From assembly GCA_029261035.1 (NCBI GenBank), contig JAJDCD010000010.1, positions 142,612 through 206,611 of the forward strand: a DNA stretch of 64,000 bases, in the 5' to 3' direction. The DNA is from Candidatus Omnitrophota bacterium (GTDB lineage: Bacteria > Omnitrophota > Omnitrophia > Omnitrophales > JACROU01). Each line of letters opens with the position of its first letter. Within the stretch, counting starts at the first letter, position 1. Below, in pieces: positions 1,749 to 61,900 of this stretch. The position numbers and the translations under genes were made by a program. The notes below the pieces were generated by a model. That model was not told where the DNA came from. It was given only the letters and a program-made list of their open reading frames with translations, and made no database searches.

Positions 1749-3494
1749 TTAGTACTTTCTCTCTTTAGGTTTAACCAAAGAGGTGTCTACTTCTTCATAA
1801 GTAATCACAGGCCCTTCAGGCGTATAAGAAGCAAGGGTCGTTTTTAAAAAATTCTTATCATCTCTTTTTGGAAACTCGGGTTTATAATGAGACCCTCTGC
1901 TTTCATTTCTTAACAAAGCTCCTTTGACAATAGCCTGCGCTATCGAGATCATATTTCCCAGTTGACGCGTAAATTGAAGAGGCTGATTCATCCACTCCGA
2001 AACATCGCTGACATTAACTTGTTTATAACGCTCTTGTAGCTCTTTTAATTTTTGTTCTGTTTTTTCTAAATCTTTATTATTCCTAACAACCGTAACATTC
2101 TTAGTCATCCAATCTGCCATTTCTTCCCAAATCACATATGGATTTTCTTTACCTCTTAATGTAAGTAGTCTTTCATTCGCATCCTGCTCTTTCTTAACTT
2201 GTTGTCCTGCCAACTTAGAAACCTCAGCATCCACATCGCCCTCAAGGCCACTCAAGTATTCTCCAGCTGTCTTAGCAGAAACTTCACCTCCATAAAAACA
2301 AGATAAAAGAGAATTCGCTCCCAATCGATTCGCTCCATGATATTGATAATCACATTCCCCAGCAGCTAAAAGCCCTTGCACATTCGTCATGTGATTCTGG
2401 TCAATATAAATCCCCCCCATCGAATAATGAACCGAAGGGAAAATTTTCATCGGAACTTTTGTTGGATCTTCCCCAACAAATTTTTCATAAATATGCAAGA
2501 TTCCACCTAAACGCTCCATGAGAAAATCGTGCGGTAAATGAGAGACATCTAAATAAACCTGATCCTCTCCATCAATCCCCAAATTCATTTCTCGGCAAAC
2601 TTTAAAAATAGCTCGTGTCGCAATATCTCGAGGAACCAAATTTCCATAATCGGGATACATCTCTTCTAAAAAGTACCAGCGCTCTCCATTTTTATAGGTC
2701 CAAACACGTCCCCCATCCCCTCTTGCAGATTCGGACATCAACCTATTTTTATCTTTACCAGGAATGGCTGTTGGATGCACCTGAATAAACTCTCCGTTAG
2801 CATAATGAACACCTTGTTGATATACAGCCCCTGCAGCACTACCCGTACAAGCAACAGAGTTCGTGCTACGACCATAAATAAGTCCACAACCCCCCGTAGC
2901 AAGAATCACTGCCCCTGATTTGAATGCCTGGACTTCCATATTATTCAAGTTCATTGCTACTATGCCGCGACACACTTGTTTGTCATCCATGATTGTGGAT
3001 AAAAATTCCCAACCTTCAAATTTTCGAACCTTTCCTTCAACTTCAAATCGACGAACTTGTTCGTCCAATGCATAAAGTAACTGCTGTCCTGTTGTCGCTC
3101 CAGAAAAAGCGGTTCGATGAAATTTAGTTCCTCCAAAACGACGAAAATCTAAAAGCCCTTCTGGAGTTCTGTTAAATGGAACGCCCATCCGATCCAGCAT
3201 ATCAATATAATGAGGTGCTTTCTCACACATTCCTTTAACCAAAGCCTGGTTGGCTAAATAATCTCCACCATAAAGTGTTTCTTCAAAATGAATTTGAGGA
3301 GAATCCCCTTCACCCTTTGTATTGACCGCTGCATTCATTCCACCTTGAGCACAAGCAGAATGAGAACGCTTTACCGGTACAATAGAAAATAAATCTACGT
3401 GATAACCGGCCTCCGCCAGCTTGATCACAGCCATTAAACCTGCAAGGCCTCCGCCAACAACAATTACTTTTTTCTTCAAACTAACTTCTGCCAT
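1749..3494 (-). CDS. sdhA: Succinate dehydrogenase flavoprotein subunit
   Basis: 581 aa. FAD-binding VIVVGGGLAGLMA, covalent-FAD histidine context RSHSACAQGGMNAA, and an SdhA/FrdA-like C-terminal domain. Confidence 0.9.
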   Translation of the reverse strand: MAEVSLKKKVIVVGGGLAGLMAVIKLAEAGYHVDLFSIVPVKRSHSACAQGGMNAAVNTKGEGDSPQIHFEETLYGGDYLANQALVKGMCEKAPHYIDMLDRMGVPFNRTPEGLLDFRRFGGTKFHRTAFSGATTGQQLLYALDEQVRRFEVEGKVRKFEGWEFLSTIMDDKQVCRGIVAMNLNNMEVQAFKSGAVILATGGCGLIYGRSTNSVACTGSAAGAVYQQGVHYANGEFIQVHPTAIPGKDKNRLMSESARGDGGRVWTYKNGERWYFLEEMYPDYGNLVPRDIATRAIFKVCREMNLGIDGEDQVYLDVSHLPHDFLMERLGGILHIYEKFVGEDPTKVPMKIFPSVHYSMGGIYIDQNHMTNVQGLLAAGECDYQYHGANRLGANSLLSCFYGGEVSAKTAGEYLSGLEGDVDAEVSKLAGQQVKKEQDANERLLTLRGKENPYVIWEEMADWMTKNVTVVRNNKDLEKTEQKLKELQERYKQVNVSDVSEWMNQPLQFTRQLGNMISIAQAIVKGALLRNESRGSHYKPEFPKRDDKNFLKTTLASYTPEGPVITYEEVDTSLVKPKERKY

Positions 3495-19801: not shown

Positions 19802-20161
19802 TTATTTAAAAAATAACTGGATTGAAATAACTAATAAAAATACGGAAAATACTTTCTGTAAAACATAAGAGGGCAAAGCGACATTCATCCGAACCCCAAT
19901 AAAACTACCCAAAACACAAAAAACAGCAACAACGGCTGCGATTTTCCAGTTCACCTGTCCTGAATTCGCGTGGTTGAGCGCTCCAAATAAAGCCGTAGGG
20001 ATAATCACTGCCAAAGAAGTTCCTGTAGCCACATGAATATCCATCTTCAACAAATATAAAAACAAAGGAACTAAAACAGTTCCTCCCCCAACTCCAAACA
20101 AACCACTTAAAATCCCTGCCAACAAACCTATCCCTAAGATCAAGCCCCAATTCATAAACAC
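19802..20161 (-). CDS. Small TSUP/TauE-like (DUF81) membrane protein, single-repeat form
   Basis: 119 aa with the GVGGGTVLVPLFLYLL motif typical of the TauE/SafE family. Half the size of canonical members. Confidence 0.5.
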   Translation of the reverse strand: MFMNWGLILGIGLLAGILSGLFGVGGGTVLVPLFLYLLKMDIHVATGTSLAVIIPTALFGALNHANSGQVNWKIAAVVAVFCVLGSFIGVRMNVALPSYVLQKVFSVFLLVISIQLFFK

Positions 20162-20583: not shown

Positions 20584-20677
20584 TCCATACTCTCTTATCG
20601 TTTTAAGTCTATTAATTGATCTTGAAGTCAATAATAATAAAGGAAGCCCTTGAAAGGTCAAGGGATAAGTTCATAAA

Positions 20678-20720
20678 TAAAAAAAGAGGCACACCTTACA
20701 ACATAAAAGGTATGCCTCTT
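20678..20720 (-). terminator. Rho-independent terminator downstream of the small-peptide gene pair
   Basis: Minus strand: AGAGGCATACC-loop-GGTGTGCCTCT followed by TTTTTTTAT. Confidence 0.65.
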
Positions 20721-20802
20721 GTCTTGATAGGGCTTTTCAGTTAAAAACGATTAAACGCTCCCTCTCGGGTCATTATGCGTTTTTGCCCTTTTAAATGACT
20801 CT

Positions 20803-20946
20803 CTATTTTGCATGGATATATCGGATTACGAATACAATAGTTGCCAATACAAACAAAGGCAAATAAACAGAAAGCTTATCCATGTACCATAATCCAATAG
20901 TAATCCCCAAAAAGAGTCCTGTCAGAAGATGATAATCATACTTCAT
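20803..20946 (-). CDS. 47-aa hydrophobic small membrane peptide (copy 1). Not in the ORF track.
   Basis: ATG at 20946 preceded by GGGGGGTGAG. Translation: MKYDYHLLTGLFLGITIGLWYMDKLSVYLPLFVLATIVFVIRYIHAK. Paralogous to the adjacent peptide. Confidence 0.5.
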   Translation of the reverse strand: MKYDYHLLTGLFLGITIGLWYMDKLSVYLPLFVLATIVFVIRYIHAK

Positions 20947-20996
20947 GTTCTCACCCCCCCATCCAAAATTTAGTAGAGCTGATCCTTCAGCCCCTC

Positions 20997-21140
20997 TTAT
21001 TTAGCTGTTATATATCTAATCAATAGGACAACAGCTCCTATAATAAACAAGGGTAAATAAGGTGTTAACTGAGCTCCATACCACAGAGCTACCACCACCC
21101 CTAGGAACATGCCCATAATTAGGCTGTGGTCTAAATGCAT
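20997..21140 (-). CDS. 47-aa hydrophobic small membrane peptide (copy 2). Not in the ORF track.
   Basis: ATG at 21140 preceded by GGGGGTGAG. Translation: MHLDHSLIMGMFLGVVVALWYGAQLTPYLPLFIIGAVVLLIRYITAK. Shares the LWY...YLPLF...IRYI.AK core with copy 1. Confidence 0.5.
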   Translation of the reverse strand: MHLDHSLIMGMFLGVVVALWYGAQLTPYLPLFIIGAVVLLIRYITAK

Positions 21141-21196
21141 ATCGCTCACCCCCTATTCTTTACTTTTCTTTCCTACACAAAAAGATTAGCACTATA

Positions 21197-21211
21197 TTGA
21201 CACATTGTCAA
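21197..21211. promoter_or_regulatory. Perfect palindrome TTGACAcatTGTCAA. Shared -35 / operator of the divergent XRE and small-peptide promoters.
   Basis: A 6-3-6 inverted repeat that reads TTGACA on both strands. On the minus strand, 17 nt downstream lies TAATCT. A near-palindrome TGACATATAGTCA follows at 21249-21261. Confidence 0.5.
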
Positions 21212-21361
21212 AATAGCATAACTTTATAGGATTATATTCGTTTAAAATTGACATATAGTCATGTTTCTAGTTATACTTAGTTTAGAAGTGAAAAAACAGT
21301 GAAGTATCTGTAAGCCATTTATTTAAAAAGAGTTATATCTTATTTAGAAGAGAGAGAAATA

Positions 21362-21670
21362 ATGAATATTGGAAAACAAATCAGAGCAATTCGGCAGAAG
21401 AAGAGAATGACTCAAAAAAAACTAGCAGAACTCATTGGAAGAGAAGGCAGTTTTGTGAGTCATATTGAAAGAAACTCCCGGAATGTCTCTGTCAGACTCC
21501 TCAGCCAAATTGCACAAGCTCTAGAAACGGCCCCTATGGAATTTTTCATTACTGGAAAAGATGATTATGAGAAAAGTATAGAAAAGATGAGCACGCTCAA
21601 TGAAGAAAGCCTACATAAACTAAATGATTATATCGACTTTCTTCATCTCACTCAAAATAAAGAGAATTAA
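21362..21670 (+). CDS. XRE-family helix-turn-helix transcriptional regulator
   Basis: 102 aa. HTH region IRAIRQKKRMTQKKLAELIGREGSFVSHIERNSRNVSVRLLSQIAQAL. Confidence 0.8.
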   Translation: MNIGKQIRAIRQKKRMTQKKLAELIGREGSFVSHIERNSRNVSVRLLSQIAQALETAPMEFFITGKDDYEKSIEKMSTLNEESLHKLNDYIDFLHLTQNKEN

Positions 21671-21681
21671 TTTGAAGCTGA

Positions 21682-21778
21682 GTGACAGTCACATTGCTCT
21701 GCGTTTCACGCAGGCATTTGACAGTCACTTTAAAGTTGAGTGAAAAAAGGGTGACTGTCACTTTACGTGACTGTCACC
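21682..21778. repeat. Cluster of four GTGAC(A/T)GTCAC palindromes with an internal CTGCG...CGCAG hairpin (family P, copy 1)
   Basis: Copies at 21682, 21718 (degenerate TTGACAGTCAC), 21751 and 21768. The last copy lies inside the final codons of cysE (encodes ...GDSHVK). Confidence 0.7.
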
Positions 21779-22429
21779 CTTTTTTACCTTCTTCTTAGCC
21801 AACGCTTGCTCAATCACGTCAATTTCTTTTTGAAGAAAAACGATGCGTTCTCTCAGCTCTTCAACAGGATCTGGTAAATCACAATGATCTAGAGGCTCTA
21901 CTTTATTTCCATCACGACGCACAACTTCACCAGGCACTCCAACGACGGTGCAACTTTCTGGCACGGGATGAATCACAACAGAACCAGCACCTACTTTAGA
22001 GTGACTCCCAACAGTAATATTTCCCAAAACTTTAGCCCCAGCACCCACAACAACATTATCTCCTAATGTAGGATGCCGTTTCCCGCGATCTTTTCCAGTT
22101 CCACCTAAAGTAACTCCTTGATACAAGGTCACATCATTTCCAATCTCAGCCGTTTCCCCGATCACAACACCCATTCCATGATCGATAAAAAACCCGCTGC
22201 CAATCTTTGCTCCAGGATGAATCTCAACACCCGTTAAGAAACGAGCCATCTGAGAAATTAAACGTGGAATCACAGGAATCTTAATCACGTGAAGTAAGTG
22301 TGCCAATCGGTAATAAAGAATCGCGTGAAAACCCGAATTAGACAAAATTGCTTCAAGCCATCCGAACAGAGTCTTAGCCGCAGGGTCACGATCAAATATT
22401 GCTTTGTAATCTCTAAAAATTGCTTTCAT
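21758..22429 (-). CDS. cysE: Serine O-acetyltransferase
   Basis: 223 aa. N-terminal SATase helical domain plus hexapeptide repeats (GAKIGSGFFIDHGMGVVIGETAEIGNDVTLYQGVTLGG). Confidence 0.85.
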   Translation of the reverse strand: MKAIFRDYKAIFDRDPAAKTLFGWLEAILSNSGFHAILYYRLAHLLHVIKIPVIPRLISQMARFLTGVEIHPGAKIGSGFFIDHGMGVVIGETAEIGNDVTLYQGVTLGGTGKDRGKRHPTLGDNVVVGAGAKVLGNITVGSHSKVGAGSVVIHPVPESCTVVGVPGEVVRRDGNKVEPLDHCDLPDPVEELRERIVFLQKEIDVIEQALAKKKVKKGDSHVK

Positions 22430-22569: not shown

Positions 22570-25500
22570 TTACGCCGAAATAAGAATGCGAAGCTGTGCA
22601 TGTATCTCAGTAACCCATCGAGCCACCATATCATTCAAGAAACTATCCCGCATATGGAATATAGAATCAATTTGATCGAGCTTGTCTGGATGCGGATTCG
22701 TAATCGGTGTTGCTAAGAAATCAAGCCCAATATCAATAGCGGCAATTCTAGCAACCAAACGATTCTCATCTCGAACAGAGTCGAGACTGTTCCCTCGGAT
22801 TACTTGATCTGAAGAAATCTTTCGAACCCCTTTAACAAAAACACCTTCTAAGTCAACCGATGGCGCAACAACAACAACTTGTCCTTTAGGAAAACGTGCT
22901 GTTTGCATCGTAACAAAAAACTCAAGAGCTTCCGCAACTGTTTTACGACCCACTTTTTGAAAAGTGATAAATTTATTTTTTACTTCTGGATCCACTTTTA
23001 AGTTCTTAAGAACACTAAGAACTCTATCTTTTGTGCTATTATTTGGCACCAAGAAAGCAATATTCTTTTTGTTTGGGCCTCTTAATGCGAGCGCAACAGG
23101 AATTAAAGTTTCTTCTAACACCTTCTCTGAAACATCTCCCAAAGGAAGTACAAGTTGTCCAGGTAAGCTACTGGTACTTTTATTAAAAATTCGAAGAGCT
23201 GCTGCTTTTGCATCTAATGTAACTGGCGAAATTTCAATACTTGTTGGATCTAACAAAGCAGTTCCTGAAATAGTAACAGACGTTGTGATCGAATCGCCCA
23301 AGCTACTTGCGACAGCTAAATTTGTTTTCTTAGCAAACAAACTAACCAAACCCTGAATTTGTCTTTTAGCACTAGAATCCTCTATCTCAACCTCTTGTAT
23401 GGCATCTAAATGATATTGCGTAAATTTTGTAGGCGCTTTTGCCAACAAACTTCTAAGAGAAGTTAATAGATGTCGTAAATGTCCCACACTTCTAAAATTT
23501 TGCAATTCTGTAACAAGTCCATCTACTTTTGCTACTGTAATCTCTTCCGGAGCTAAAGTCTGCCTTGCAGAAGACCCTCTCTCTTTTTTATGACGATGAT
23601 CTCTAAGATGATCATTTCTCCGTCCTAAGCTATCGGCAGTAACCTCTTCTAAAATTTTTGCTACAGCTGATTTAGCTTGAGGAGTTACAAAAACTTGATT
23701 TACACCTAGGCTAGAAGCAGATAAAGGTTTCGCTGAAATAGGTGTAATATCTTCCTCTCCCACAAACATGGTAAAAAATCCGGAGTTTCTTAAACTTTCT
23801 TTTGCACCTGCCAACAACCTGTTTTCTCCACTTTCAATAAGTGGAATTCCTGCCTCTAACATTTGCTTTTTATTACGAGCAAGCAACATATTTCTTGCAT
23901 CCATAATCACAGGAACTTCAACTCTACGACCACCAATCACAACACTTTTAATAGGTTCCATTATTTGATGCGCTTCCACTAAATCTAAATTTTTTATTTC
24001 GTCCCAGTCCGTCATGAGCGCTATCAAGTTGCTTCCCTTAATTGCTTGTTTCATCGTTTTCGCAACTTCCACCTTATCGTCAAACTTAACAGTAATTAAA
24101 CGTTTCCATCCCTTTTTAACAATTCCTTCAATTTCTCTTTGGGTTAAATTTAAACTTACTGTATCAACATCCGCATCATATTTATCTTCACCCCTACTAC
24201 CAGACAAAACTTGATTCCGTACTTGTCGCAACAACCCTGATATATCTTTATCTAAAATACTCATATCTTCTTTTAAAATCTGGTACGTAAAATCAAATAC
24301 AAAGTTTTGTTGTGCTTCTTCTAAAGGATCATGAAAAGAAACCGTTGCTCCCAAATCCAATAACTCTCGGATCACAACCATCGAACGCGTTTCACGAACA
24401 TCGTCTGTATTCGCTTTAAATGCAAGTCCTAAAACACCAATACGAACACCCTCTAATGGGAGATCTGTATTTTCTGCTACATCTCCTATCGAAGCTAATG
24501 TGCTTTTGATTTTACCCACAACAACCATAGGTGCTCGTCCGTTTGTTGAAATCGCTTTCTCAGCAATTTTAAAATCAACTCCACTTTCTTTAGCACGATA
24601 AAGAGCTTCAGCGGTATCTTTAGGAAAACAAGAGCCTCCATACCCTGCTCCAGCAGCCAAAAATGCTGCATTAGGGTTACGAACATCATTTTTCATGATA
24701 CGAACTACTTCTTGATAAGAAGCTCCAACTTCTTCACTCAGCCAAGCAAGTGCATTTGCAAAAGAGATACTGATAGCCAACCAAACATTGGCCGAATATT
24801 TAATCATAGGCGAACTTTTACGGTCTGTCACAACTACAGGATGCTTGTGCCGTGCCTGCAAAGGAGCCCATAACTCTTGTAATTTTTTTGATGCGAATTC
24901 TGATTCCACACCAAATACATTTCTGTCTGGATTTAAAACATCGTGAACCGCACTCCCTTCTCTTAAGAACTCGGGATTACTTGCGATATCAAAATGGCTC
25001 CCTTCTTTAAGATCCATTTCAACTAGAACTTCTTTCATTTTATCGAACGCAATTGGAGGTACTGTTGACTTCACAACAATAACTTTCCTTCTAGGAGTTC
25101 TTCTGTCACTACTCCTTAGATTACTTTTAATACCCCAACCAGCAGTTCTTGTTGCTGAAAGTAAATAAGCTAAATTAGCTTCCCCTTTATTAGGTCCTTC
25201 TTTAATTTCTGGAGTTCCAACTGCAATATAAATAATATTAGCATCATGAATCGCTGCTTCAGCACCACTGCTATAGAACTCCGACTCTTCCAATGGAGAA
25301 TGTTGAAAGTGAAGTCGCCCATCATCACGATTCTTTTTTACCAATTCTTCTAATCCAGGCTCCCAAATAGGCAGCCTTACTTCGGGTTGATTAAGCCCTT
25401 CAATCTTATTTCTATCGATATCCAGAGTCGTAACATCATGACCCAAATCAGACAAAACAGTTCCTGTAATTAATCCCACATAACCCGTTCCGACCATAAC

Positions 25501-28500
25501 CACTTTTTTTCTATCTACAGCTGCAGGATCGTCAAATTTTATAACCTTGTCCATATTGGCTCTATCTTTAACCTTTTTAAAACTAGGACCAACAGAAGGA
25601 CGGCCTAAGCTAAGGTAGTTAATCCCTACATCTGCTACTTCCGTAAGAGAAACTTCCTGAGTTCCATCAGATTGGCGACCAAAAATATTACGCCCATCAA
25701 AAAGAGGCTTTAGTTTCAAAACTCTCTTCATCTTTTGTAACCCAATATTGCGAATCACATCATGATCCGCTGCAATCACCACTGCATTACTTTTTCGGAT
25801 AGCCTCTTCTGGAGAGTCTACAAACTCAAAAAAGTTTACGTTTAATCGACTTCTAATAATTTTATCCAACGATGTATCTTCTCTAGCTTCCGTAACCCAT
25901 TTCATAAACTCTTCTTGAACGTCAGGGTCATAGATATAAATTTTCTTAATTCCTTTAGCCGCTAACCACAACACTAAATCTTTAGCAGGGGAAGCTAGCA
26001 AACGCGCTCCATTTCCTTTAAAAGCAACTCCTAATAACGCCATCTTAATATCTGAAACTCTTTTTCCACTTATGGTCGACATATTTTGATCGATCATAGA
26101 TTTAAACCAATCAATTTGCGCATTATTAGAATCGCGCACCTCTGTAACACCATGAAATGCGAGTTGAGGTGGTAAAACATCATTTTCCCCAGCCCTTTCA
26201 TTTCGCTTAAATAACTCATCAAATTCCGAGGCCGCTCTTTCTAGAAAAGCTCTTAACTTTCCCCCAAAAGCAAAAGAAGGACTAATATTATGCAACCCCA
26301 CACGCCTATCCAAACCAGCACCAAACGCAACCATTCCCATATCTCCTTTTAACTTACGTACAACTTGTGCAATCGTATTAAAAGAAGCAAGCTTGGTACC
26401 CAAATAAGAGAGAATTCCCAAGTAGCCCAACTCCGCACTCGCAGAGTCCGTCACAACAAACATTTTTTCATCTAAGCCTTTCGGAAAAAGAAGCGCTTTC
26501 AAACTTTCCTTTGTGTTTTCTTGAGCTTGTTTCAAATTTCTAAATTTATCTGCATCATCTTCATCTACAATCGATTCCACCTTAGGAAATCCTAAAATCA
26601 ACTGCTGACTATTCATATCCTCGATTTGAGATCCTTTACGCAACAACTCTGGAGCGTACACAACCGTAAAATTATCATCCTCTCCACTAACATCATAAAT
26701 CGTCTGCATAATATTTTCTGTTCGTCCTGTAGGCATATGGCTTCGAACAATAAATGTTTTATGACTTCGATCTCCCAAAGCTCTGAGCCTCTTTAACGCT
26801 TCACCAAATCCTCTACTACGCTGATTGACAACTTTCTCAAATCGATCCGCATCTTTGTCTAAGAAAAGACCCGCATCAATCATAATGACATTATGTTCCT
26901 CTAAAACCATAATCTGTGCAATTTGATATTTCAACTCTTTAAGCTTTGCACCCGATCCTTGTAAAACAGATGAATAAAAAAGATCCTCTTTTATACTAAT
27001 TAATGTTGGAGTCACTTCTCCACTATGTCCAAAGAGCACTTTTTCTTGAATAAAATCTTTTATCCAAGTCAAATGCTTCTCAATCTGGATCATTCTTTGC
27101 GTAAGAACCTCGTCTACAGTCTGTTCTCCTAAGTCCAATTGCTGCAAACCTACTTTGTCATCTAATTTCTGTAGTTCTTTAACTTTTATTTTTTCTACAT
27201 TCAATTTCAACCTTAACCAATCCGAAACATCATCAATATTTATTTCTGTAATATCCGCATCTTTCTTTCCTTGTAAAATAACCTCAGATCTTCCTGGTTC
27301 ATGGTTCTTTGAATTTGCAGAATCCAAATTTCTCTGCGTATCATACCAATCAATCGAGATCTGACGCCCTGCATCTGTTGCTCTTTTAAGCAACACAGCA
27401 CTCGTCGTTACACCCACATCACCAACACCCCAAAAAGCAATTTTTTCTATTGGGGTTATTTCAGTAACCACCTGATCAGCACCCAAAGATGCCGCCGTAG
27501 AAACGGAAACATCCACCCAAAGACTAGACTGATTTGGGCCTAAAAATTGAACACGCAACTTATCGCCCTCTTGAGCCGTAACTTTTGCTGACGTTAAAGA
27601 CGATAAAGCTGTGCCATCAAAAGCTCGTCTTCGAAGAAGAGAGTTTGCTCGTCTTTCTAAGCCGCGTTGATAAGCTTTAGAATCTAATTGATAAGCAGAA
27701 GATACAGGTTCTGTAACCAAAGATCGAATTAACATGTGCCCTAAAGTTTCCGGAGCATCCAAAGAGTTCCTTGTTAATCGTGCTGCGATTGAAATTTTAT
27801 TTAATTCTGATTTAATAAATGCATCTGAATTAATTTGATCTTTTCCTAAAATTAAATTTAAATATTCATGCGCTTGCTCAGACAACTCTGCTTTTGGACG
27901 AATAGATAAGAAGGAAACATCTTCTTCTGTAAGTTTTTGCTGAATTCCACCACCATGAAAACCACCAGTAATAAGAACCGCCTTTGATTTACGTTCTTGC
28001 TTCAAGAAAGAAAGAGACTTTTGAATCATCGCACCTTCTCGCTCGCGAGCCACTTCATAAAAACGAAGCGCACGATCGAAAAACGAATCCTCCAATTGAG
28101 ACAAGAGAGAAACTCTATTTTCCATCTCTCTTTGAATCGTTTGGATCTTTTCCGTTAGTAAAGAAGGCTTCCAGTCAGAAGCTAAAGATTGAATTTTTTG
28201 AGCTTCATCACGACTTAATTCGAGCTTAAATAATTTTTCATAAAGATTAATAGTTTCATCTGCTTTGAAAATTTGTTTTTCCAACCGTGTTTCAAGAAGA
28301 GCTTCAGCAATGCTATTTTCCAAAGCACTTTTCTCCTGAAACAAATCAGACCCTACTAATTCTTTTTGATAAATAAGTTGACGAACCAAGGAGGGTAATA
28401 CCTTACTGCGATCTAATGAAAACTCATATTCTTCTGCAGCACTCCAAAGAAGCTCAAAATAACCTCTTGGATCTTGAAACAAAAGTAAATCACTTTGAGA

Positions 28501-29448
28501 GCTTGCATTCAATGAAGGAACTCCCTGTCTTAAGGAACTCCAATTTTCTGACAAAATCTTTTTAAACGGATTACTTTCTGGGATTTTAGTTAAAAGAAGA
28601 TGTTGAATGTATAACCATTCTTGAGCCCAAACCTTAAGATCAATATCCTTACTTTCTCTTTCAAGGGTAAATAGCTTACGAATATTCTTTAAATCAAGAG
28701 GCGAGGCTACATATTTCTGTTCCAGTTCATTTAAATGTCTTAAATAATTTAATAAGTGCAGTTTTCCATTTTCAAACTCGCTCTTTTTCTGATCCCATAC
28801 CCGTAAATCACCTAAATAAACTTTATCTTTTGCTTTTTGAATCTGGGTTTTCCACTGACCCACTGCCTTGAGCGCCTGTGGAGAGAATTTGTAAATTTCA
28901 CGAAAAAGCTTTAAATTTTCTTTGTATAACTCAGGGTTCTCCACCCCTAACACTTTAACTTTTGATTGTTTCTCAATAGCAAAAACTTCAGCCGCTGAAA
29001 ATTGTCCTTTTTTCATCCAACGATGAGCAGCACTTACATTCATTTTCGCATCAGGGAATAAGTTAAAAAGACTAGAATCAATAGAACTATCGGCCCCTTC
29101 AACAAAAACAACGTCAACACCTTCTGTTCGATAAAGGTAATCTAAAATTTGTTTAATTCTATTTTGCGTTCCTAAATGAGCATGCGCATCTTCCAAATGA
29201 TAAATTTTCATTCTTTCTTGCTTTGTTTGATAAGCATCAACAACAAAGCCTAATTCATTTGGGAAACCAAAAGAAGAAGACATGGACTGTTGTGTAACTG
29301 AAGGGGTGCTTACAAACACCTCGGCCCAAGCAGGATTAACTCCTGAAAAAATCATAAAAAATGCCAATGCTAAGGAAAGCATTTTCATAATCATCTTCTT
29401 TTTTAAAGTTTTTAATCTTCTTCGCATAAGTTTTTCTTCTTTCATCAA
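22570..29448 (-). CDS. Giant (2292 aa) signal-peptide protein with tandem UDP-glucose/GDP-mannose dehydrogenase-family modules (the first degenerate, the second intact) flanked by unknown domains
   Basis: N-terminus MMKEEKLMRRRLKTLKKKMIMKMLSLALAFFMIFSGVNPAWA|EV resembles a Sec signal. Residues about 1410-1850 form a complete UGDH (Rossmann KVVMVGTGYVGLITG, NPEFLREGSAV, catalytic GAGYGGSCFPKD, GLAFKANTDDVRETRS). Residues about 640-1400 form a divergent UGDH-like copy with the catalytic Cys replaced (IAFWGVGDVGVTT, YAPELLRKGSQ, SFAFGGKLRAF, LLGVAFKGNGARLL). Confidence 0.8.
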   Translation of the reverse strand: MMKEEKLMRRRLKTLKKKMIMKMLSLALAFFMIFSGVNPAWAEVFVSTPSVTQQSMSSSFGFPNELGFVVDAYQTKQERMKIYHLEDAHAHLGTQNRIKQILDYLYRTEGVDVVFVEGADSSIDSSLFNLFPDAKMNVSAAHRWMKKGQFSAAEVFAIEKQSKVKVLGVENPELYKENLKLFREIYKFSPQALKAVGQWKTQIQKAKDKVYLGDLRVWDQKKSEFENGKLHLLNYLRHLNELEQKYVASPLDLKNIRKLFTLERESKDIDLKVWAQEWLYIQHLLLTKIPESNPFKKILSENWSSLRQGVPSLNASSQSDLLLFQDPRGYFELLWSAAEEYEFSLDRSKVLPSLVRQLIYQKELVGSDLFQEKSALENSIAEALLETRLEKQIFKADETINLYEKLFKLELSRDEAQKIQSLASDWKPSLLTEKIQTIQREMENRVSLLSQLEDSFFDRALRFYEVAREREGAMIQKSLSFLKQERKSKAVLITGGFHGGGIQQKLTEEDVSFLSIRPKAELSEQAHEYLNLILGKDQINSDAFIKSELNKISIAARLTRNSLDAPETLGHMLIRSLVTEPVSSAYQLDSKAYQRGLERRANSLLRRRAFDGTALSSLTSAKVTAQEGDKLRVQFLGPNQSSLWVDVSVSTAASLGADQVVTEITPIEKIAFWGVGDVGVTTSAVLLKRATDAGRQISIDWYDTQRNLDSANSKNHEPGRSEVILQGKKDADITEINIDDVSDWLRLKLNVEKIKVKELQKLDDKVGLQQLDLGEQTVDEVLTQRMIQIEKHLTWIKDFIQEKVLFGHSGEVTPTLISIKEDLFYSSVLQGSGAKLKELKYQIAQIMVLEEHNVIMIDAGLFLDKDADRFEKVVNQRSRGFGEALKRLRALGDRSHKTFIVRSHMPTGRTENIMQTIYDVSGEDDNFTVVYAPELLRKGSQIEDMNSQQLILGFPKVESIVDEDDADKFRNLKQAQENTKESLKALLFPKGLDEKMFVVTDSASAELGYLGILSYLGTKLASFNTIAQVVRKLKGDMGMVAFGAGLDRRVGLHNISPSFAFGGKLRAFLERAASEFDELFKRNERAGENDVLPPQLAFHGVTEVRDSNNAQIDWFKSMIDQNMSTISGKRVSDIKMALLGVAFKGNGARLLASPAKDLVLWLAAKGIKKIYIYDPDVQEEFMKWVTEAREDTSLDKIIRSRLNVNFFEFVDSPEEAIRKSNAVVIAADHDVIRNIGLQKMKRVLKLKPLFDGRNIFGRQSDGTQEVSLTEVADVGINYLSLGRPSVGPSFKKVKDRANMDKVIKFDDPAAVDRKKVVMVGTGYVGLITGTVLSDLGHDVTTLDIDRNKIEGLNQPEVRLPIWEPGLEELVKKNRDDGRLHFQHSPLEESEFYSSGAEAAIHDANIIYIAVGTPEIKEGPNKGEANLAYLLSATRTAGWGIKSNLRSSDRRTPRRKVIVVKSTVPPIAFDKMKEVLVEMDLKEGSHFDIASNPEFLREGSAVHDVLNPDRNVFGVESEFASKKLQELWAPLQARHKHPVVVTDRKSSPMIKYSANVWLAISISFANALAWLSEEVGASYQEVVRIMKNDVRNPNAAFLAAGAGYGGSCFPKDTAEALYRAKESGVDFKIAEKAISTNGRAPMVVVGKIKSTLASIGDVAENTDLPLEGVRIGVLGLAFKANTDDVRETRSMVVIRELLDLGATVSFHDPLEEAQQNFVFDFTYQILKEDMSILDKDISGLLRQVRNQVLSGSRGEDKYDADVDTVSLNLTQREIEGIVKKGWKRLITVKFDDKVEVAKTMKQAIKGSNLIALMTDWDEIKNLDLVEAHQIMEPIKSVVIGGRRVEVPVIMDARNMLLARNKKQMLEAGIPLIESGENRLLAGAKESLRNSGFFTMFVGEEDITPISAKPLSASSLGVNQVFVTPQAKSAVAKILEEVTADSLGRRNDHLRDHRHKKERGSSARQTLAPEEITVAKVDGLVTELQNFRSVGHLRHLLTSLRSLLAKAPTKFTQYHLDAIQEVEIEDSSAKRQIQGLVSLFAKKTNLAVASSLGDSITTSVTISGTALLDPTSIEISPVTLDAKAAALRIFNKSTSSLPGQLVLPLGDVSEKVLEETLIPVALALRGPNKKNIAFLVPNNSTKDRVLSVLKNLKVDPEVKNKFITFQKVGRKTVAEALEFFVTMQTARFPKGQVVVVAPSVDLEGVFVKGVRKISSDQVIRGNSLDSVRDENRLVARIAAIDIGLDFLATPITNPHPDKLDQIDSIFHMRDSFLNDMVARWVTEIHAQLRILISA

Positions 29449-29697: not shown

Positions 29698-30792
29698 TTA
29701 AACACTAAAGCGAAAAAACATGATATCACCATCTTTTACTTGGTATTCTTTGCCTTCCAGACGCATAAGCCCCTTCTCTTTAATGCCTTTTTCAGAGCCT
29801 AGTTCGTTTAATGCGGTGTAGTCAAATACCTCAGCCCGAATGAAACCTCTCTCGAAGTCCGTGTGAATTTCTCCAGCGGCCTGAGGCGCTGTCACAAGGT
29901 TTTGTACGGTCCAAGCTCGAACCTCTTGCTTTCCTGCAGTAAAAAAGGTGATTAACCCTAAAAGACTGTAACCCGTGCGAATAAGCTGGTTCAGACCGGA
30001 CTCTTCAAGGCCCATATCTTTCAAAAACTCCACCTTCTCATCTTCTTCCAACTCAGCAAGCTCAGCTTCCACTTTTCCAGACACCACAACCACCTGGGAA
30101 TTCTCTTTTTCCGCCAACTCTCTTACTTGCTGAACCAAAGGCCCACCTTCCGGTAAATCATTTTCATTAACGTTACAGCAGTACAAAACAGGCTTGGATG
30201 TTAAGAGCTGAAGGTCTAATAACACTTTTTTTTCATCCTCAGACAAACCTTGTTTTCTAACAGGAGTTCCATCTTCAAGACTTTCTTTCACTTTAACGCA
30301 AACTTCTTGCTGCGCTTTAGCATCCTTGTCTCCAGTCCGTACTAGTTTTTCATTTCTTTCTACACGCTTAGTCACCGTATCTATGTCTTTAAGACATAGT
30401 TCTGTATCAATAACCTCGATATCCCCGACAGGATCCACCTTGCCTGCAACATGCACAATATCATCATCTTCAAAGCAACGCACCACATGAAGAACAGCAT
30501 CTACCTCTTTAATGTTTCCTAAAAACTGATTTCCTAAACCTTCTCCTCTACTCGCTCCTGCAACTAAGCCTGCAATATCAACAAACTGCATCGAAGTAGG
30601 CGTTATTTTATCGGGTTGGTATATTTCAACTAAACGATCCAATCGCTTATCCGGGACAGAAACAATTCCTACGTTCGGTTCTATGGTACAAAAAGGATAA
30701 TTCGAAGCGCCTGCTCCTGCTTTAGTCAACGAGTTAAAAACAGTCGATTTTCCTACGTTCGGTAATCCTACAATTCCACATTTAAATCCCAC
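29698..30792 (-). CDS. ychF: Ribosome-binding ATPase YchF (Obg-family GTPase with TGS domain)
   Basis: GIVGLPNVGKSTVFN P-loop, FCTIEPN, DIAGLVAGAS, C-terminal TGS domain. The likely start is GTG 30792 after AAGGAG. The track start at 30855 adds an unlikely leader. Confidence 0.85.
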   Translation of the reverse strand: MGFKCGIVGLPNVGKSTVFNSLTKAGAGASNYPFCTIEPNVGIVSVPDKRLDRLVEIYQPDKITPTSMQFVDIAGLVAGASRGEGLGNQFLGNIKEVDAVLHVVRCFEDDDIVHVAGKVDPVGDIEVIDTELCLKDIDTVTKRVERNEKLVRTGDKDAKAQQEVCVKVKESLEDGTPVRKQGLSEDEKKVLLDLQLLTSKPVLYCCNVNENDLPEGGPLVQQVRELAEKENSQVVVVSGKVEAELAELEEDEKVEFLKDMGLEESGLNQLIRTGYSLLGLITFFTAGKQEVRAWTVQNLVTAPQAAGEIHTDFERGFIRAEVFDYTALNELGSEKGIKEKGLMRLEGKEYQVKDGDIMFFRFSV

Positions 30793-30819
30793 AGAAATCT
30801 CCTTATCAAAATTTAAAAA

Positions 30820-30925
30820 TAAAAAGTATAAAGTAAAAACTATGGACACATCCAAATATTTGGATGTGTTTATTTTTAAATTTTAAATTATGGTTTTTAA
30901 TTTTTACTTTAAAATTTTGAATCTC
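30820..30925. repeat. AT-rich MITE-like element (family H) with central perfect palindrome ACACATCCAAATATTTGGATGTGT (30846-30869)
   Basis: Arms AAAAGTATAAAGTAAAAAC / GTTTTTAATTTTTACTTT around the core. Homologous to the element at 5318-5435. Probably also acts as the terminator of the upstream ychF paralog. Confidence 0.6.
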
Positions 30926-32020
30926 TCACACATTAAATCTAAAGTGAACAACATCCCCATCTTGAATTTCGTAATCTTTTCCTTCTACTTTAAAACAACC
31001 GTTTTCCCTAGCTTTTTGAAGAGATCCCGAATCAATTAAATCCTGACACTTTACAACCTCTACCCGAATGAAGCCTCTTTCCATATCGGAGTGCACATGC
31101 CCCGCAGCCTGAGGAGCCTTCGTTTCTTTAGGAACGGTCCAAGCCCGAACTTCACCATGGTCATGGGTAAAGAAAGTAACCTTATCCAAAAGTTCATAAC
31201 CCATATGCACCACTTTAGCAGGCCCTGATTTTTCAAGTAAAAACTCTTCTATAATTTCTTCCTTTTTCTCCGCATCTTCCATTCGGGACATCTCTTCTTC
31301 AAGAATGCCACATAGATATACAATTCGAGACATATCCTCCTCAGAAAAAGCATTTAACTCTTTTTCCCACTTCCCTCCGCCCGGCAAATCATCTTGGCTT
31401 ACATTAACGCAATATAAATAAGGTTTGATTGTAAATAACTGAATATCTTTTAAGGAGTGTACTTGTTCATGCGTAAGATCCAAATGTCGAATCGGATGAC
31501 CACTTTCCAAAGCATCTTTTAATCCATGCAACAAATCAAAAAGATCTTCATCAAATTTTCCTGAAGCTTTCTTTGCTTCGAGCTTGGCAATGCGTCGCCC
31601 AACGGTTTCACTGTCTTTATGAATCAGTTCATTATTTACGATCCGAATATCGCGCATGGGATCAATGGAACCTAAAAAGTGAACGGCATCTTCACTGTCA
31701 AAAATTCGAACTACATGAAGTAATACATCTACATCTCTAAGGTGAGAAAGAAATTGGTTCCCCATTCCCTCTCCTTTAGAAGCTCCTTCTACCAAACCCG
31801 CCACATCCAAAAATTCCAAATGGGCCCGAACTACGTGTTTCGGATCAATAATCTTAACGATTTTTTCCAGCCGCTCATCCGGGACAGGAACAACCCCTTT
31901 TTTAGGTTGAATCGTAGAAAAAGGAGCAATTGAGATTTCCTCTTTTCCATTAGCTAAAGTATTAAAAATCGTGGTCTTACCTACATTAGGCAACCCCACA
32001 ATTCCACAACGAAAACCCAT
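30926..32020 (-). CDS. Second, divergent YchF-family GTPase paralog
   Basis: MGFRCGIVGLPNVGKTTIFN, FSTIQP (instead of FCTIEPN), DVAGLVEGAS, and a C-terminal TGS-like domain. SD GAGGAG lies upstream. Confidence 0.8.
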   Translation of the reverse strand: MGFRCGIVGLPNVGKTTIFNTLANGKEEISIAPFSTIQPKKGVVPVPDERLEKIVKIIDPKHVVRAHLEFLDVAGLVEGASKGEGMGNQFLSHLRDVDVLLHVVRIFDSEDAVHFLGSIDPMRDIRIVNNELIHKDSETVGRRIAKLEAKKASGKFDEDLFDLLHGLKDALESGHPIRHLDLTHEQVHSLKDIQLFTIKPYLYCVNVSQDDLPGGGKWEKELNAFSEEDMSRIVYLCGILEEEMSRMEDAEKKEEIIEEFLLEKSGPAKVVHMGYELLDKVTFFTHDHGEVRAWTVPKETKAPQAAGHVHSDMERGFIRVEVVKCQDLIDSGSLQKARENGCFKVEGKDYEIQDGDVVHFRFNV

Positions 32021-40699: not shown

Positions 40700-40710
40700 G
40701 TGACAGTCAC
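40700..40710. repeat. Isolated GTGACAGTCAC palindrome abutting the mutS stop codon
   Basis: Single copy of the family P core in the mutL-mutS spacer. Confidence 0.5.
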
Positions 40711-53471: not shown

Positions 53472-53497
53472 AATTTCCTCCTACACGGGAATGAAGG

Positions 53498-53596
53498 TGA
53501 CTGTCACTTAAAGTGACTGTCACCGAGCTAAACTTCATCACAACTTCACAAGTGACAGTCACTTTGCTCTGCTTCTGCAGGCAAGTGACAGTCACT
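53498..53596. repeat. Cluster of four GTGAC(A/T)GTCAC palindromes with internal CTGC...GCAG hairpin (family P, copy 2). Fills the thiC-nadA spacer.
   Basis: Copies at 53498, 53513, 53552 and 53586. Internal sequence TTTGCTCTGCTTCTGCAGGCAAGTGACAGTCAC parallels the 21693-21728 copy. Confidence 0.7.
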
Positions 53597-53599
53597 AAT

Positions 53600-54976
<1,377 letters not shown>

Positions 54977-58811: not shown

Positions 58812-58935
58812 ATCTATTAGCGAATAGCGTAGAGCGTTTAGCGTATAGGAGTAAAACCCTCTCCTTATCAGGGAGAGGGGAAATTGAATTTGAATTACTA
58901 TACGCTCCACGCTAAATGCTCTACGCTATTATTAC
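58812..58935. repeat. Inverted pair of heptamer-repeat arrays (TAGCG-type) flanking a family G hairpin (CCCTCTCCTTATCAGGGAGAGGG)
   Basis: Forward array TCTATTAGCGAATAGCGTAGAGCGTTTAGCGTATAGG at 58812-58848. Reverse-complement array CTATACGCTCCACGCTAAATGCTCTACGCTATTAT at 58899-58933. Confidence 0.65.
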
Positions 58936-61900
58936 GCCATACTCGCAATCAAGTTCACAACTTTTTGTTTCAACAAAGCATTCTTCAAGAAACGTTCAAT
59001 GAAACGCTCTGTCACTCGATAACGATCATTTTCAAAAACAACATAGCCTTGTTTCAATAAGGCTTCAGGATCCTGCAACAGCTTCATCGCTAAAGCAAGA
59101 CTCACAAAATCCGTATAGAGCTGTTCTTCTTCAGACGCAGCTCTCTCGCCTATCGTCATCGGCCTGTTTCGATGGATCTCCAGCTCCCTTAAAACAGAAT
59201 CAATCACTCCATCGTCATCCATCCAAACCACTTCATCCCTAGATTCTAAACCACTATCCTTTTTTATCCAATTCAAACTTCTTCTTCCCTGCTCATCAAA
59301 CTCTACGGTTTTACCCGAAAGCAACGAATCTAAAAATTCATCGGGTTGCATCTTAACGTTTGGTAACGAAACAAAATAACCATGTTTTCTCATTTGAGCT
59401 TCTGTAAGAGAACCTTTTCGAATCATCTCCATCGCTAAACGGCTCATCGTTTCCTTATAAGCCTTATTATCATAATAGATCACAACCGTCTTTCCCTGAG
59501 CAATTTGCTGCAACACTGCATCAGGACTCATTTCTCCAGAAATCACAACCGCAAAGTTCGCGACTCCAAGGACATCAAACAACTCCTTCAAAGCAGGCTC
59601 ATCCTGAATTAATGTATTCATACGTTGTTGCATGGATTCCCATTCAGAAAATAAAATATCATAAATTTGCTGATAAATCGTTGGGAAATAAACACGCAAA
59701 TCCAAACTAATCATTCGACCTGCAGCATCCGTCATAATCAATATAGACTCAACTGAATTCTGATATTCCACATCTAAGACAGCACCCAAACTCTCCGCTT
59801 CGGCCTTATCCAACCATTCTTCTTCTAGTTCACCTTTAAGCAATGTGTCTGACAATCGATCTTTTCTTAACGCTTCAGCATACTGAACCAGCTGACCTTG
59901 TACTGTATCTAATTTTAAAACCTCTATTTTTTCTATAATTTCCAGAATCTCAGGTGTTTTTTCCAAGCGAATAAAATCCAGTTCTCTTTTTTCGTTGTGA
60001 CCTAAATTAATTAAATTAAAGGTAACTGTCTGCCTAAAACGCATTCTGTATTCTTGAGAAATAGAATGAATGGCCTTTTCCGCTCTATCCATATAACCCC
60101 TTTTACCCTCTCGACTCAAACTCTGCGGTAAAGCCAAGTACAGAGCAATCAAAATAAAAGCACTCTGGGATTCTTCACTTTCTTCTGAGAGGCTTAAAAC
60201 ATCTTCCACAAATGCTTCATCAATCGATTTATCTGAAGCAGCATAAGCCTCTAACGTATTTAAAAAAGACATTAAAACTCCCGAGGCATTTTTGGACTGA
60301 GCTATATCTATAAGAAATTGAAGGTTTAAAAACTCCTGATAAATGGGATTCTTAAAAGCCAATTCAACAAACATCTTCCAAGATCCAAAAGTAACATGCT
60401 CGGGAGGAACATTTTTAAGAGCCAGAAGTTTTTTTATTTTCTCTATATCTTCTTCAGAAAGGGCTCCAAAATATTCATCAACCCTTTTCAAGTTAAGAAA
60501 ACTTTTATATGCATTTTGAGAACGAGAATAAAATTGAAATAACAAATCAAGCCATTTTGCACAATCTGCCTTTTTGATGGAGTCCGTACGTTTCACTGAT
60601 TCAAGAATTTGATACACTTTTTCAGAATTATCTTGGGATAATATTGTTTTCCAGCTTGGATCAAGCTCTTCCCAAGGGCCCAATGCATGCTCTAAGTTCT
60701 TTTCATATTGTCCCAAGCTCTGAGCCTTAACTCGATCGAGCCATTCTCCTTCGAGCTTTTCTTCTCCCTTTGGTTGCTGGGTCTTTTCTTCCTTTTTCCA
60801 AATCTGATCCAGATTATATAATTGTTCTTGAACAGATTTTGGGTCCGAGATAGATAACCTTTCTAATACTTCTAAAAGTTCATCTCCTTTCTGATGTTTG
60901 ATTACAAAAGCCTCATGAACCATAGCTTCTCTCTCAGGCCCTATATGGATGATTTCACTTAACACTGAGGATAAATCTTTCTTTTGGTCGAGTTCTATAT
61001 CGCTTATAGTCATAAATATTTTTTTAAGCCTTTCGAACACTTGACCCCTCTCAAACACTGTTAAATCATTGGGGAAACTTAACAGAAGGATAAAAAATAT
61101 ATTTCTTTCTACAGATATCATTTTCTGCAATTCATGTAATTGACTTAATAACAAGGTATCAATAATACCTCCCCCATCAGCATAAGTCTCTAATTGATCA
61201 AAATATATTCCCGCATCCGTATCTGTATTATTTCTCTGAGAAATCATATAAGTAATTAAATCCCAATCTAATAATTCTTGATACTCTCTGTGTTTTTTTG
61301 TAAGTATTAAAAATGCTGTCCATGCGTTGATATAATAAATAAACCCATCTCCCTGAAGACTAAACTGATTAAAAAGTTGCTGCATTAACTGTAAAATATT
61401 TGTATTTAAAGAGTTCGTTGGGTCTGTATATACATGGAATGCAAATCTTTTCCATACCCCAGGAACTTCTTCCAAATCCAGACGCTGAGCCCTTGCCGTC
61501 AAAGACTGAAAAAAATCAAGCCAATCAACCAAATCTTCTGTCGTCTTAATGACTTGCTTGTCAACAAACAGGCTAAACACATCAATTAAATCAGCATAAG
61601 AAGAAATTACTTCCTGAGACTGGTCCGACAATAACTCAAAAGGAATCAGCTGAGAGAGATTAGACTCTTCATACTGCTCCTGTGCATTTCCCAAACTCTG
61701 CGCCACAGAAAGATCTAACCATTCCGTTTCTGTATTATTAGGCTCTATTATTTGCTCAGAGCTCATGTACTCATCAATCCATTCGTCTATTATTCTGTTA
61801 ACAGTTTTTGTTATTTCCTCTATAGGCAACACGTCAAGTCGTTCTAAAATTTCCAGAAGCTCTAAACCTTGCCGCTTGTCAATAAACAAACGTGCATATC

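Follow-up and report, generated by a model that had tools for sequence, protein, structure and literature searches.

The stretch of DNA analyzed here, 64,000 nucleotides of a contig from a Candidatus Omnitrophota bacterium which we call the window throughout, contains two very small genes lying in tandem on the minus strand, named pepA and pepB, and divergently from them the gene of a regulator of the XRE family with a helix–turn–helix (HTH) domain. The genes and the signals around them are collected in Table 1. An earlier note, made from the letters of the sequence, had described pepA and pepB as paralogous genes for hydrophobic peptides of 47 amino acids with an identical Shine–Dalgarno sequence and a conserved core. 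This description holds: both genes lie where they had been placed, and 23 of the 47 residues are common to the two products (49% identity), among them the motifs LWY, YLPLF and IRYI.AK.

Table 1. Genes and predicted signals at the pepAB locus (positions are those of the window)
Feature	Positions	Strand	Details
pepA, A-type 47-aa small membrane protein (predicted)	20997-21140 (stop codon included)	minus	open reading frame and translation, MHLDHSLIMGMFLGVVVALWYGAQLTPYLPLFIIGAVVLLIRYITAK
pepB, B-type 47-aa paralogue	20803-20946 (stop codon included)	minus	open reading frame and translation, MKYDYHLLTGLFLGITIGLWYMDKLSVYLPLFVLATIVFVIRYIHAK
Shine–Dalgarno sequence of pepA	21145-21153	minus	GGGGGTGAG, read from the sequence
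Shine–Dalgarno sequence of pepB	20950-20958	minus	GGGGGTGAG, read from the sequence; kept in relatives
Peptide promoter P_pep (predicted)	21183-21211	minus	-35 TTGACA 21211-21206; 17-nt spacer; extended -10 TGC-TAATCT 21191-21183
Intrinsic terminator of the pepAB unit (predicted)	20677-20720	minus	14-bp stem, 9-nt loop, U7; 3' region z = -4.6
XRE-family HTH regulator (putative repressor), 102 aa	21362-21670	plus	HTH residues 1-65 and a conserved C-terminal helical tail (~35 aa)
Putative operator O_pep	21197-21211	both	TTGACAcatTGTCAA, perfect palindrome over -35 and spacer of P_pep
Putative operator O_xre	21248-21262	both	TTGACAtatAGTCAt, over -35 and spacer of the XRE promoter; 2 mismatches to the O_pep palindrome
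XRE promoter P_xre (predicted)	21248-21277	plus	-35 TTGACA 21248-21253; 18-nt spacer; -10 TATACT 21272-21277; 11/12 match
Repeat element of GTGACWGTCAC palindromes	21675-21790		between XRE stop and cysE stop; fold -56.7 kcal/mol, z = -8.8

The distance between the Shine–Dalgarno sequence and the ATG is 3–4 nt in both genes, and a sequence of the form GG(A/G)GGTGA precedes every member of the family we have seen. The leader of pepA (21141–21182) has a calculated minimum free energy of 0 kcal/mol, i.e., it is predicted to be unstructured with the Shine–Dalgarno sequence exposed. Both pepA and pepB are genuine genes, and their products are probably efficiently translated small integral-membrane proteins. 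The pepA sequence is identical to one protein cluster (P0001). Gene calling on three Logan contigs identical to the window (L001, L006, and L007) found pepA and missed pepB, and the exact pepB sequence is without a record as a gene product.

Downstream of pepB the unit ends at a strong intrinsic terminator of its own, as the earlier note had proposed, and terminator-like hairpins are also present 3′ of pepB in several relatives (L017, L022, L028, and L036). On the upstream side the promoter pattern TTGACA-N14-TGC-TAnnnT is kept in 8/8 lineages that carry the XRE gene and in 9/9 that lack it, the hexamers being looser in a few of the latter. The form found in the relatives is TTGACA-N14-TGC-TAGCTT, that is, a perfect or near-perfect −35 combined with an extended −10. 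The next gene, rnhA, has a separate promoter (TTGACA-N17-TACACT) in all lineages examined. By these signals pepAB is a transcription unit of its own in every lineage examined. A hairpin in the gap between pepA and pepB (20975–20994) was considered as an attenuator and rejected; its z-score is only −1.7 and the sequence of the gap varies among the relatives.

At all loci bearing the pair the gene order is cysE-pepA-pepB-rnhA-half-size tauE-(resB, ccsA)-HEAT-repeat protein-Rieske-cytochrome b. The GC content of these loci ranges from 37 to 55%, and their cysE is 64–82% identical to that of the window. The pepAB locus of the window is free of tRNA and mobile-element genes and shows no compositional (GC) anomaly, and an Rfam scan of the whole window gave no matches. 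Judged by this constant neighborhood, pepAB is a vertically inherited chromosomal operon residing at one fixed locus.

The two genes are not interchangeable. An ordered pair, A then B, was found in about 25 related loci, and nearly all loci of sufficient length contain two members of the family in tandem. In about 20 loci the leading position is taken by an A-type orthologue, and the B-type always comes second. The nearest neighbor belongs to the same type in 35 of 36 sequences, so that A (consensus ..LITGIFxGVTVGL.YTGQL..YLPFFVIGAV..) and B (consensus ..LLTGLFLGITxGLWYAG.L..FMPFFVLLT..) form distinct orthologous groups. On this evidence the two copies are ancient paralogues and not the result of a recent tandem duplication. 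Among the A and B orthologues the synonymous differences are saturated: their proportion (pS) is 0.7–0.96 compared with 0.12–0.40 for the nonsynonymous differences (pN). For unsaturated pairs the median ratio of nonsynonymous to synonymous substitution rates (dN/dS) is about 0.15 for A and about 0.18 for B, and the codon positions vary in the order 3>1>2. Lack of conservation of the reading frames in related genomes had been named in the earlier note as evidence that would speak against the small genes. What we find is that both frames are conserved in the relatives and, because dN/dS is low, pS saturated, and the codon pattern 3>1>2, both are under purifying selection.

How far the family extends was assessed by several searches. 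A profile of the two peptides retrieved only four clusters from 5.8 billion proteins, and on the contigs from which these come the genes are arranged as in the window. A further 21 loci were obtained by scanning species genomes and metagenomes, and one of the two genome matches is labelled Candidatus Omnitrophota. When 1.84 billion representatives were searched exhaustively with HMMER, 44 matches were obtained (50% identity level), nearly all of them 45–78 aa long, and a broader profile searched against the 5.8 billion proteins gave 161 clusters at 90% identity. None of the 161 clusters has a Pfam domain, the only names given are ‘hypothetical protein’, and Omnitrophica is the source where one is labelled. 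Neither of the two peptides matches Pfam, NCBIfam, PADLOC, or PHROGs at E ≤ 1. The family profile searched against the PDB sequences (E ≤ 10) gave chance matches to transmembrane (TM) segments only, the best of which (E = 0.12) is TM1 of an unrelated transporter. Relatives were not found in GenBank phages, PLSDB plasmids, or IMG/VR, and our search of the literature on XRE proteins with small membrane proteins, or on small proteins of Omnitrophota, gave nothing relevant. The impression of the earlier note that the peptides belong to no recognized family is therefore borne out by the databases. Within the collections searched the family appears as uncharacterized, new to the databases, and confined to Omnitrophota wherever a source is named.

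Using an alignment of 90 sequences, AlphaFold2 (AF2) predicts for PepA a helix from residue 5 to 20, a break at Y21, and a second helix from 22 to 46, with a predicted local distance difference test (pLDDT) of 92. The hydropathy plot shows two peaks with a polar turn between them. Conserved features of the family are Asp4, a G10xxxG14xxxG18 zipper in the first helix, the beginning of the second helix with L25, Y/F28, P30, and F32 (Y-L-P-F), and a basic C-terminus. A Foldseek search gave no structural neighbor in the PDB and 0 matches in BFVD. A two-helix hairpin of the N-in/C-in type, with both ends in the cytoplasm, would be the likeliest topology. Because the order A then B is older than the split of the lineages and has persisted in them, an assembly of PepA and PepB into a hetero-oligomer in the cytoplasmic membrane is suggested, and the contact is probably made through the glycine zipper.

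The same synteny could be taken as a functional link to one of the membrane systems encoded next to the pair. PepA and PepB might then be accessory subunits of the half-size TSUP/TauE protein (119 aa), of system II ResB/CcsA, or of Rieske/cytochrome b. This neighborhood is kept in every pair-bearing lineage, including the distant L036; the tauE gene is half-sized and covers only positions 128–237 of Pfam TauE; and the peptide motif GL[WF]x5Tx2[LV]P[LF]F bears a weak local resemblance to TM1-TM2 of TauE. However, pepAB and rnhA each have their own promoter, in several lineages pepB is followed by a terminator-like hairpin, and the unrelated rnhA gene lies between the pair and these systems. In addition, distant members of the family occur as single copies in unrelated contexts, namely in a bioF-bioD/PilZ setting, where the gene comes after bioF-bioD (L029, L030), and in another setting with ferredoxin genes on one side and a ShlB/TPS pair on the other (L027, L031). 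We therefore consider a role as accessory subunits unlikely, though worth keeping in mind. The related idea that the peptides are pieces of a split TauE was rejected, since hhalign against the TauE halves gave a probability of 7.3% and a score of 20.2, and unrelated open reading frames of the window score 18–20. The TauE/TSUP gene itself (19802–20161, minus strand) keeps its half size of about 118–122 aa in all relatives, and its product is presumably a homodimeric 4-TM half-transporter.

The gene divergent from pepA had been taken for an XRE regulator with an HTH, and rightly so: Pfam HTH_3 (PF01381) matches residues 7–58 with 38.8 bits at a cut-off of 23. The best matches in the other libraries, PADLOC HTH_VI, Control_protein and capH and NCBIfam RstR, stay below the curated cut-offs. 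No more than seven clusters of homologues of this protein exist, reaching down to 44% identity, and each of those for which the surroundings were read lies between cysE and a peptide gene of the family. Since the family is tiny and every context read is the pepAB locus, XRE appears to be a dedicated, locus-bound regulator. The recognition-helix stretch SFVSHIERNSRN is invariant at 10 of 12 positions. The C-terminal tail is conserved as L(D/N)EE.L.K.NDY.DFL and could be an oligomerization or sensing part.

A search of other genomes for the peptide pair next to XRE genes had also been proposed. This arrangement is indeed found, in the subclade of the window: carriers of the XRE gene are only its closest relatives, namely the window itself, L002/L010, L003/L004/L011, L012, L033/L034, L035, and L032. 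Most relatives have the pair without XRE, and in this more distant majority the pepA promoter directly follows cysE. The most divergent XRE locus, L032 (XRE 46% identical), has kept both operators, described below, and has a single diverged peptide gene (1961–2110, minus strand; MHKNRDLVTGLVLGVILGMHYGVHFEAYKMVLYIGAIVLALPVIQKLVK), whose product is without the conserved Pro30.

Two operator-like palindromes of 15 bp and of the form TTGACA-N3-TGTCAA are found by alignment in 8/8 XRE-bearing intergenic regions. Their half-site consensus is TTGACAA. Across the XRE lineages the consensus of O_pep is TTGACA-AT(G/A)-TGTC(A/T)N and that of O_xre, written on the peptide strand, (T/A)T(G/T)AC(T/G)-(A/T)(T/A)(A/T)-TGTCAA. 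The centers of the two are 51–52 bp apart in 8/8 lineages (51 bp in the window), and each palindrome provides, with its outer half, the −35 of one of the two back-to-back promoters. In a shuffled window one would expect 0.01 occurrences of the exact O_pep palindrome. In the earlier note a single palindrome was thought to supply the −35 on both strands. This is correct for the peptide promoter, which takes its −35 from O_pep, but not for the XRE gene, whose promoter uses the second palindrome, O_xre. A −10-like hexamer is found 17–18 nt past the −35 of P_xre in L010, L003, L033, and L035, and L012 has only the weak candidate TAGGCT. A second XRE promoter, made up of the TTGTCA half of O_pep and a −10 TAGGAT, is a weak possibility (9/12 match, with the −10 kept in some lineages only).

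The comparison of lineages with and without XRE is especially informative, since P_pep is common to both. The inner half-site of O_pep (GTC at +10 to +12) is present in 8/8 XRE-bearing and in 0/9 XRE-less lineages. Because this half-site tracks the XRE gene while the promoter is shared, it is the regulator, and not the working of the promoter, to which the palindrome is linked, and the assignment of the operators to XRE is strongly supported by this pattern. Allowing up to two mismatches, the operator occurs three times in the window compared with 4.4 expected, two of the three being the sites in this intergenic region, and there is no evidence for further targets of XRE within the window.

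Short hydrophobic peptide genes divergent from an XRE-family HTH gene are also the layout of rgg/shp loci, where a short peptide gene lies divergently from the regulator gene. One could therefore ask whether the peptides are precursors of secreted signals sensed by XRE, as in the Rgg/SHP or RRNPP systems. RRNPP regulators have about 280 aa and combine the HTH with a tetratricopeptide repeat (TPR)-like domain, whereas the XRE protein has 102 aa and contains no TPR or peptide-binding domain. Moreover, conservation runs along the whole 47 aa including both helices and is not limited to a short C-terminal pheromone, and in most lineages the peptides are present but the regulator is not. We hardly believe in such a signaling function.

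In a number of relatives without XRE (L009, L013, L016, L019–L023) about 100 nt with conserved boxes lie between the pepA promoter and pepA. The box (A)AATAGCAT stands directly after the −10 and is followed by two or three GATCA(T/A) motifs; we refer to these as TAGCAT/GATCA boxes. A conserved RNA fold of these long leaders was considered and rejected (RNAalifold −0.44 kcal/mol, 1 compensatory pair), and the boxes look like sequence motifs. They may be DNA sites of another, unlinked regulator and would then represent an alternative control of the same operon.

The layout had suggested to the earlier reader a module of the type I toxin kind or one for phage exclusion. In this reading PepA and PepB would be membrane-damaging toxins, either type I-like or holin-like, or effectors of abortive infection, silenced by XRE and released under stress or infection. 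The proteins are indeed small and hydrophobic with a GxxxGxxxG motif, the divergent repressor would be a tight one with operators at both promoters, XRE scores against generic defense-associated HTH models (capH, control proteins of restriction–modification (R-M) systems), and the leader boxes of the XRE-less relatives are conserved and possibly regulatory. Yet the pair has been passed on vertically over deep divergence, always at the same housekeeping locus, and the ancient A/B orthology is unlike the lineage-specific repeats of toxin genes. Most lineages have a consensus promoter and no adjacent repressor gene. The unstructured leader with its strong, exposed Shine–Dalgarno sequence is the opposite of what is found in the mRNAs of type I toxins. 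A search for an antisense unit opposite pepAB gave only 9/12 promoter-like and 5-bp terminator-like matches, none of them credible. Furthermore, there is no PADLOC or PHROG match, phage, plasmid, and IMG/VR relatives are lacking, and no lysis or defense genes were found near pepAB, the neighbors being cysE, XRE, and rnhA. The proposal of the earlier note is thus not supported by what we find, and we judge a toxin or an exclusion effector to be improbable.

To sum up, we rather favor the reading that pepAB is a stand-alone, ancient bicistronic operon with a normal physiological role and not a toxin locus, to which the subclade of the window has added control by XRE. PepA and PepB would insert into the cytoplasmic membrane, where they may act as a structural or accessory subunit or as a small channel. 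Dimers of XRE would occupy O_pep and O_xre. Since the two operators are about five helical turns apart and on the same face of the DNA, binding is possibly cooperative. Each bound operator would block the −35 and the spacer of its promoter, with the outcome that pepAB is repressed and XRE autoregulated until some signal relieves the repression. We infer the repression, the cooperativity, and the nontoxicity of the peptides from the arrangement described above.

Several points weigh against this reading. It is only the position of the operators that speaks for repression rather than activation by XRE. The leader boxes in the XRE-less relatives could mean that tight regulation is universal, as would be expected of a harmful product. 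With five sequences as input, AF2 predicts one continuous helix, so that the hairpin topology is not established, and both hydrophobic stretches are short (15–17 residues). Finally, glycine zippers are also found in pore-forming toxins and pinholins, and the proteins could therefore be toxic when overexpressed.

A bolder version can be formulated. Omnitrophota are a phylum of ultra-small, probably host-dependent bacteria, and PepA/PepB might be a new hetero-oligomeric channel or pore of the glycine-zipper type, or else a small subunit that is essential to some membrane complex, in either case specific to this phylum. Its dosage would be critical, and two dedicated control systems would have evolved for it, XRE with its twin operators in one clade and the TAGCAT/GATCA leader boxes in the other. 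We give this version a small chance.

The regulatory logic at pepAB is conventional, and the novelty lies in the protein family itself, which is new to the databases. We are dealing with a phylum-restricted family of membrane proteins of 46–48 aa that are often missed by annotation pipelines. Being conserved and probably highly expressed, they are candidates for clade-defining membrane components of Omnitrophota, for which we know of no cultured model. The locus also offers a natural experiment: as the operator half-site is present on a shared promoter only where XRE is present, operator and regulator can be assigned to each other by comparison.

Some further elements of the window deserve mention. 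The repeat element between the XRE and cysE genes is built from GTGACWGTCAC palindromes, of which the window contains eight compared with 0 expected; they also occur at 40700–40710 and 53480–53600. The copy of about 110 nt at 21675–21790 aligns with the one at 53480–53600, which lies on the opposite strand, and the element is absent from the same spot in L010. With A6 on one side of its last hairpin and T6 on the other, the element is a probable bidirectional terminator. It looks like a repetitive extragenic palindromic (REP) or miniature inverted-repeat transposable element (MITE) that doubles as such a terminator. Two giant open reading frames were noticed, one of 2292 aa (22570–29448, minus strand) and one of at least 1685 aa (58932–63989, minus strand). 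Between them lies a pair of tandem paralogues of 385 aa (29698–30855, minus strand) and 364 aa (30926–32020, minus strand), 44% identical to each other. The pair is kept in the closest relative, L002, where the counterparts carry YchF-type GTPase domains (MMR_HSR1 and YchF-GTPase_C).

The pepAB locus shares single features with several known systems. As with the XRE repressors of the Cro/CI and C-protein kind (control proteins of R-M systems, CapH, RstR), the regulator is a small HTH_3 protein and inverted repeats of 15 bp cover the −35 and the spacer of its own and of the divergent promoter. The target, however, is a chromosomal operon for small membrane proteins and not a phage, an R-M system, or a defense system, the family of seven clusters is tied to one locus, and a partner protease or anti-repressor is not present here. 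With the type I toxins (Hok, TisB, Ldr, Ibs, Fst) PepA and PepB have in common that they are hydrophobic, shorter than 60 aa, chromosomally encoded, and, as is possible for these toxins, present in tandem copies. They differ in having two hydrophobic segments instead of one, in the open leader, in the deep orthology of both copies at a fixed locus, and in that no antisense RNA unit was found; control at pepAB appears to be exerted by a protein repressor, and this in one subclade only.

Holins of class II have two TM segments, as is predicted for PepA and PepB, but PepA and PepB have no Pfam or PHROG match and no BFVD neighbor, and no lysis cassette adjoins their genes. Rgg/SHP and other RRNPP pairs likewise combine a short hydrophobic peptide gene with a divergent gene of the XRE family; here the TPR sensor domain is missing, and PepA and PepB resemble resident membrane proteins. 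A further parallel is that with the paired small multidrug resistance (SMR) transporters EbrAB and YkkCD and with CrcB pairs, which function as obligate heterodimers; at pepAB, too, tandem paralogues have long been kept as distinct A and B forms, suggesting a heteromer. The transporters and CrcB proteins have four TM segments per subunit and known substrates, whereas PepA and PepB consist of about two short helices and have no sequence relation to them.

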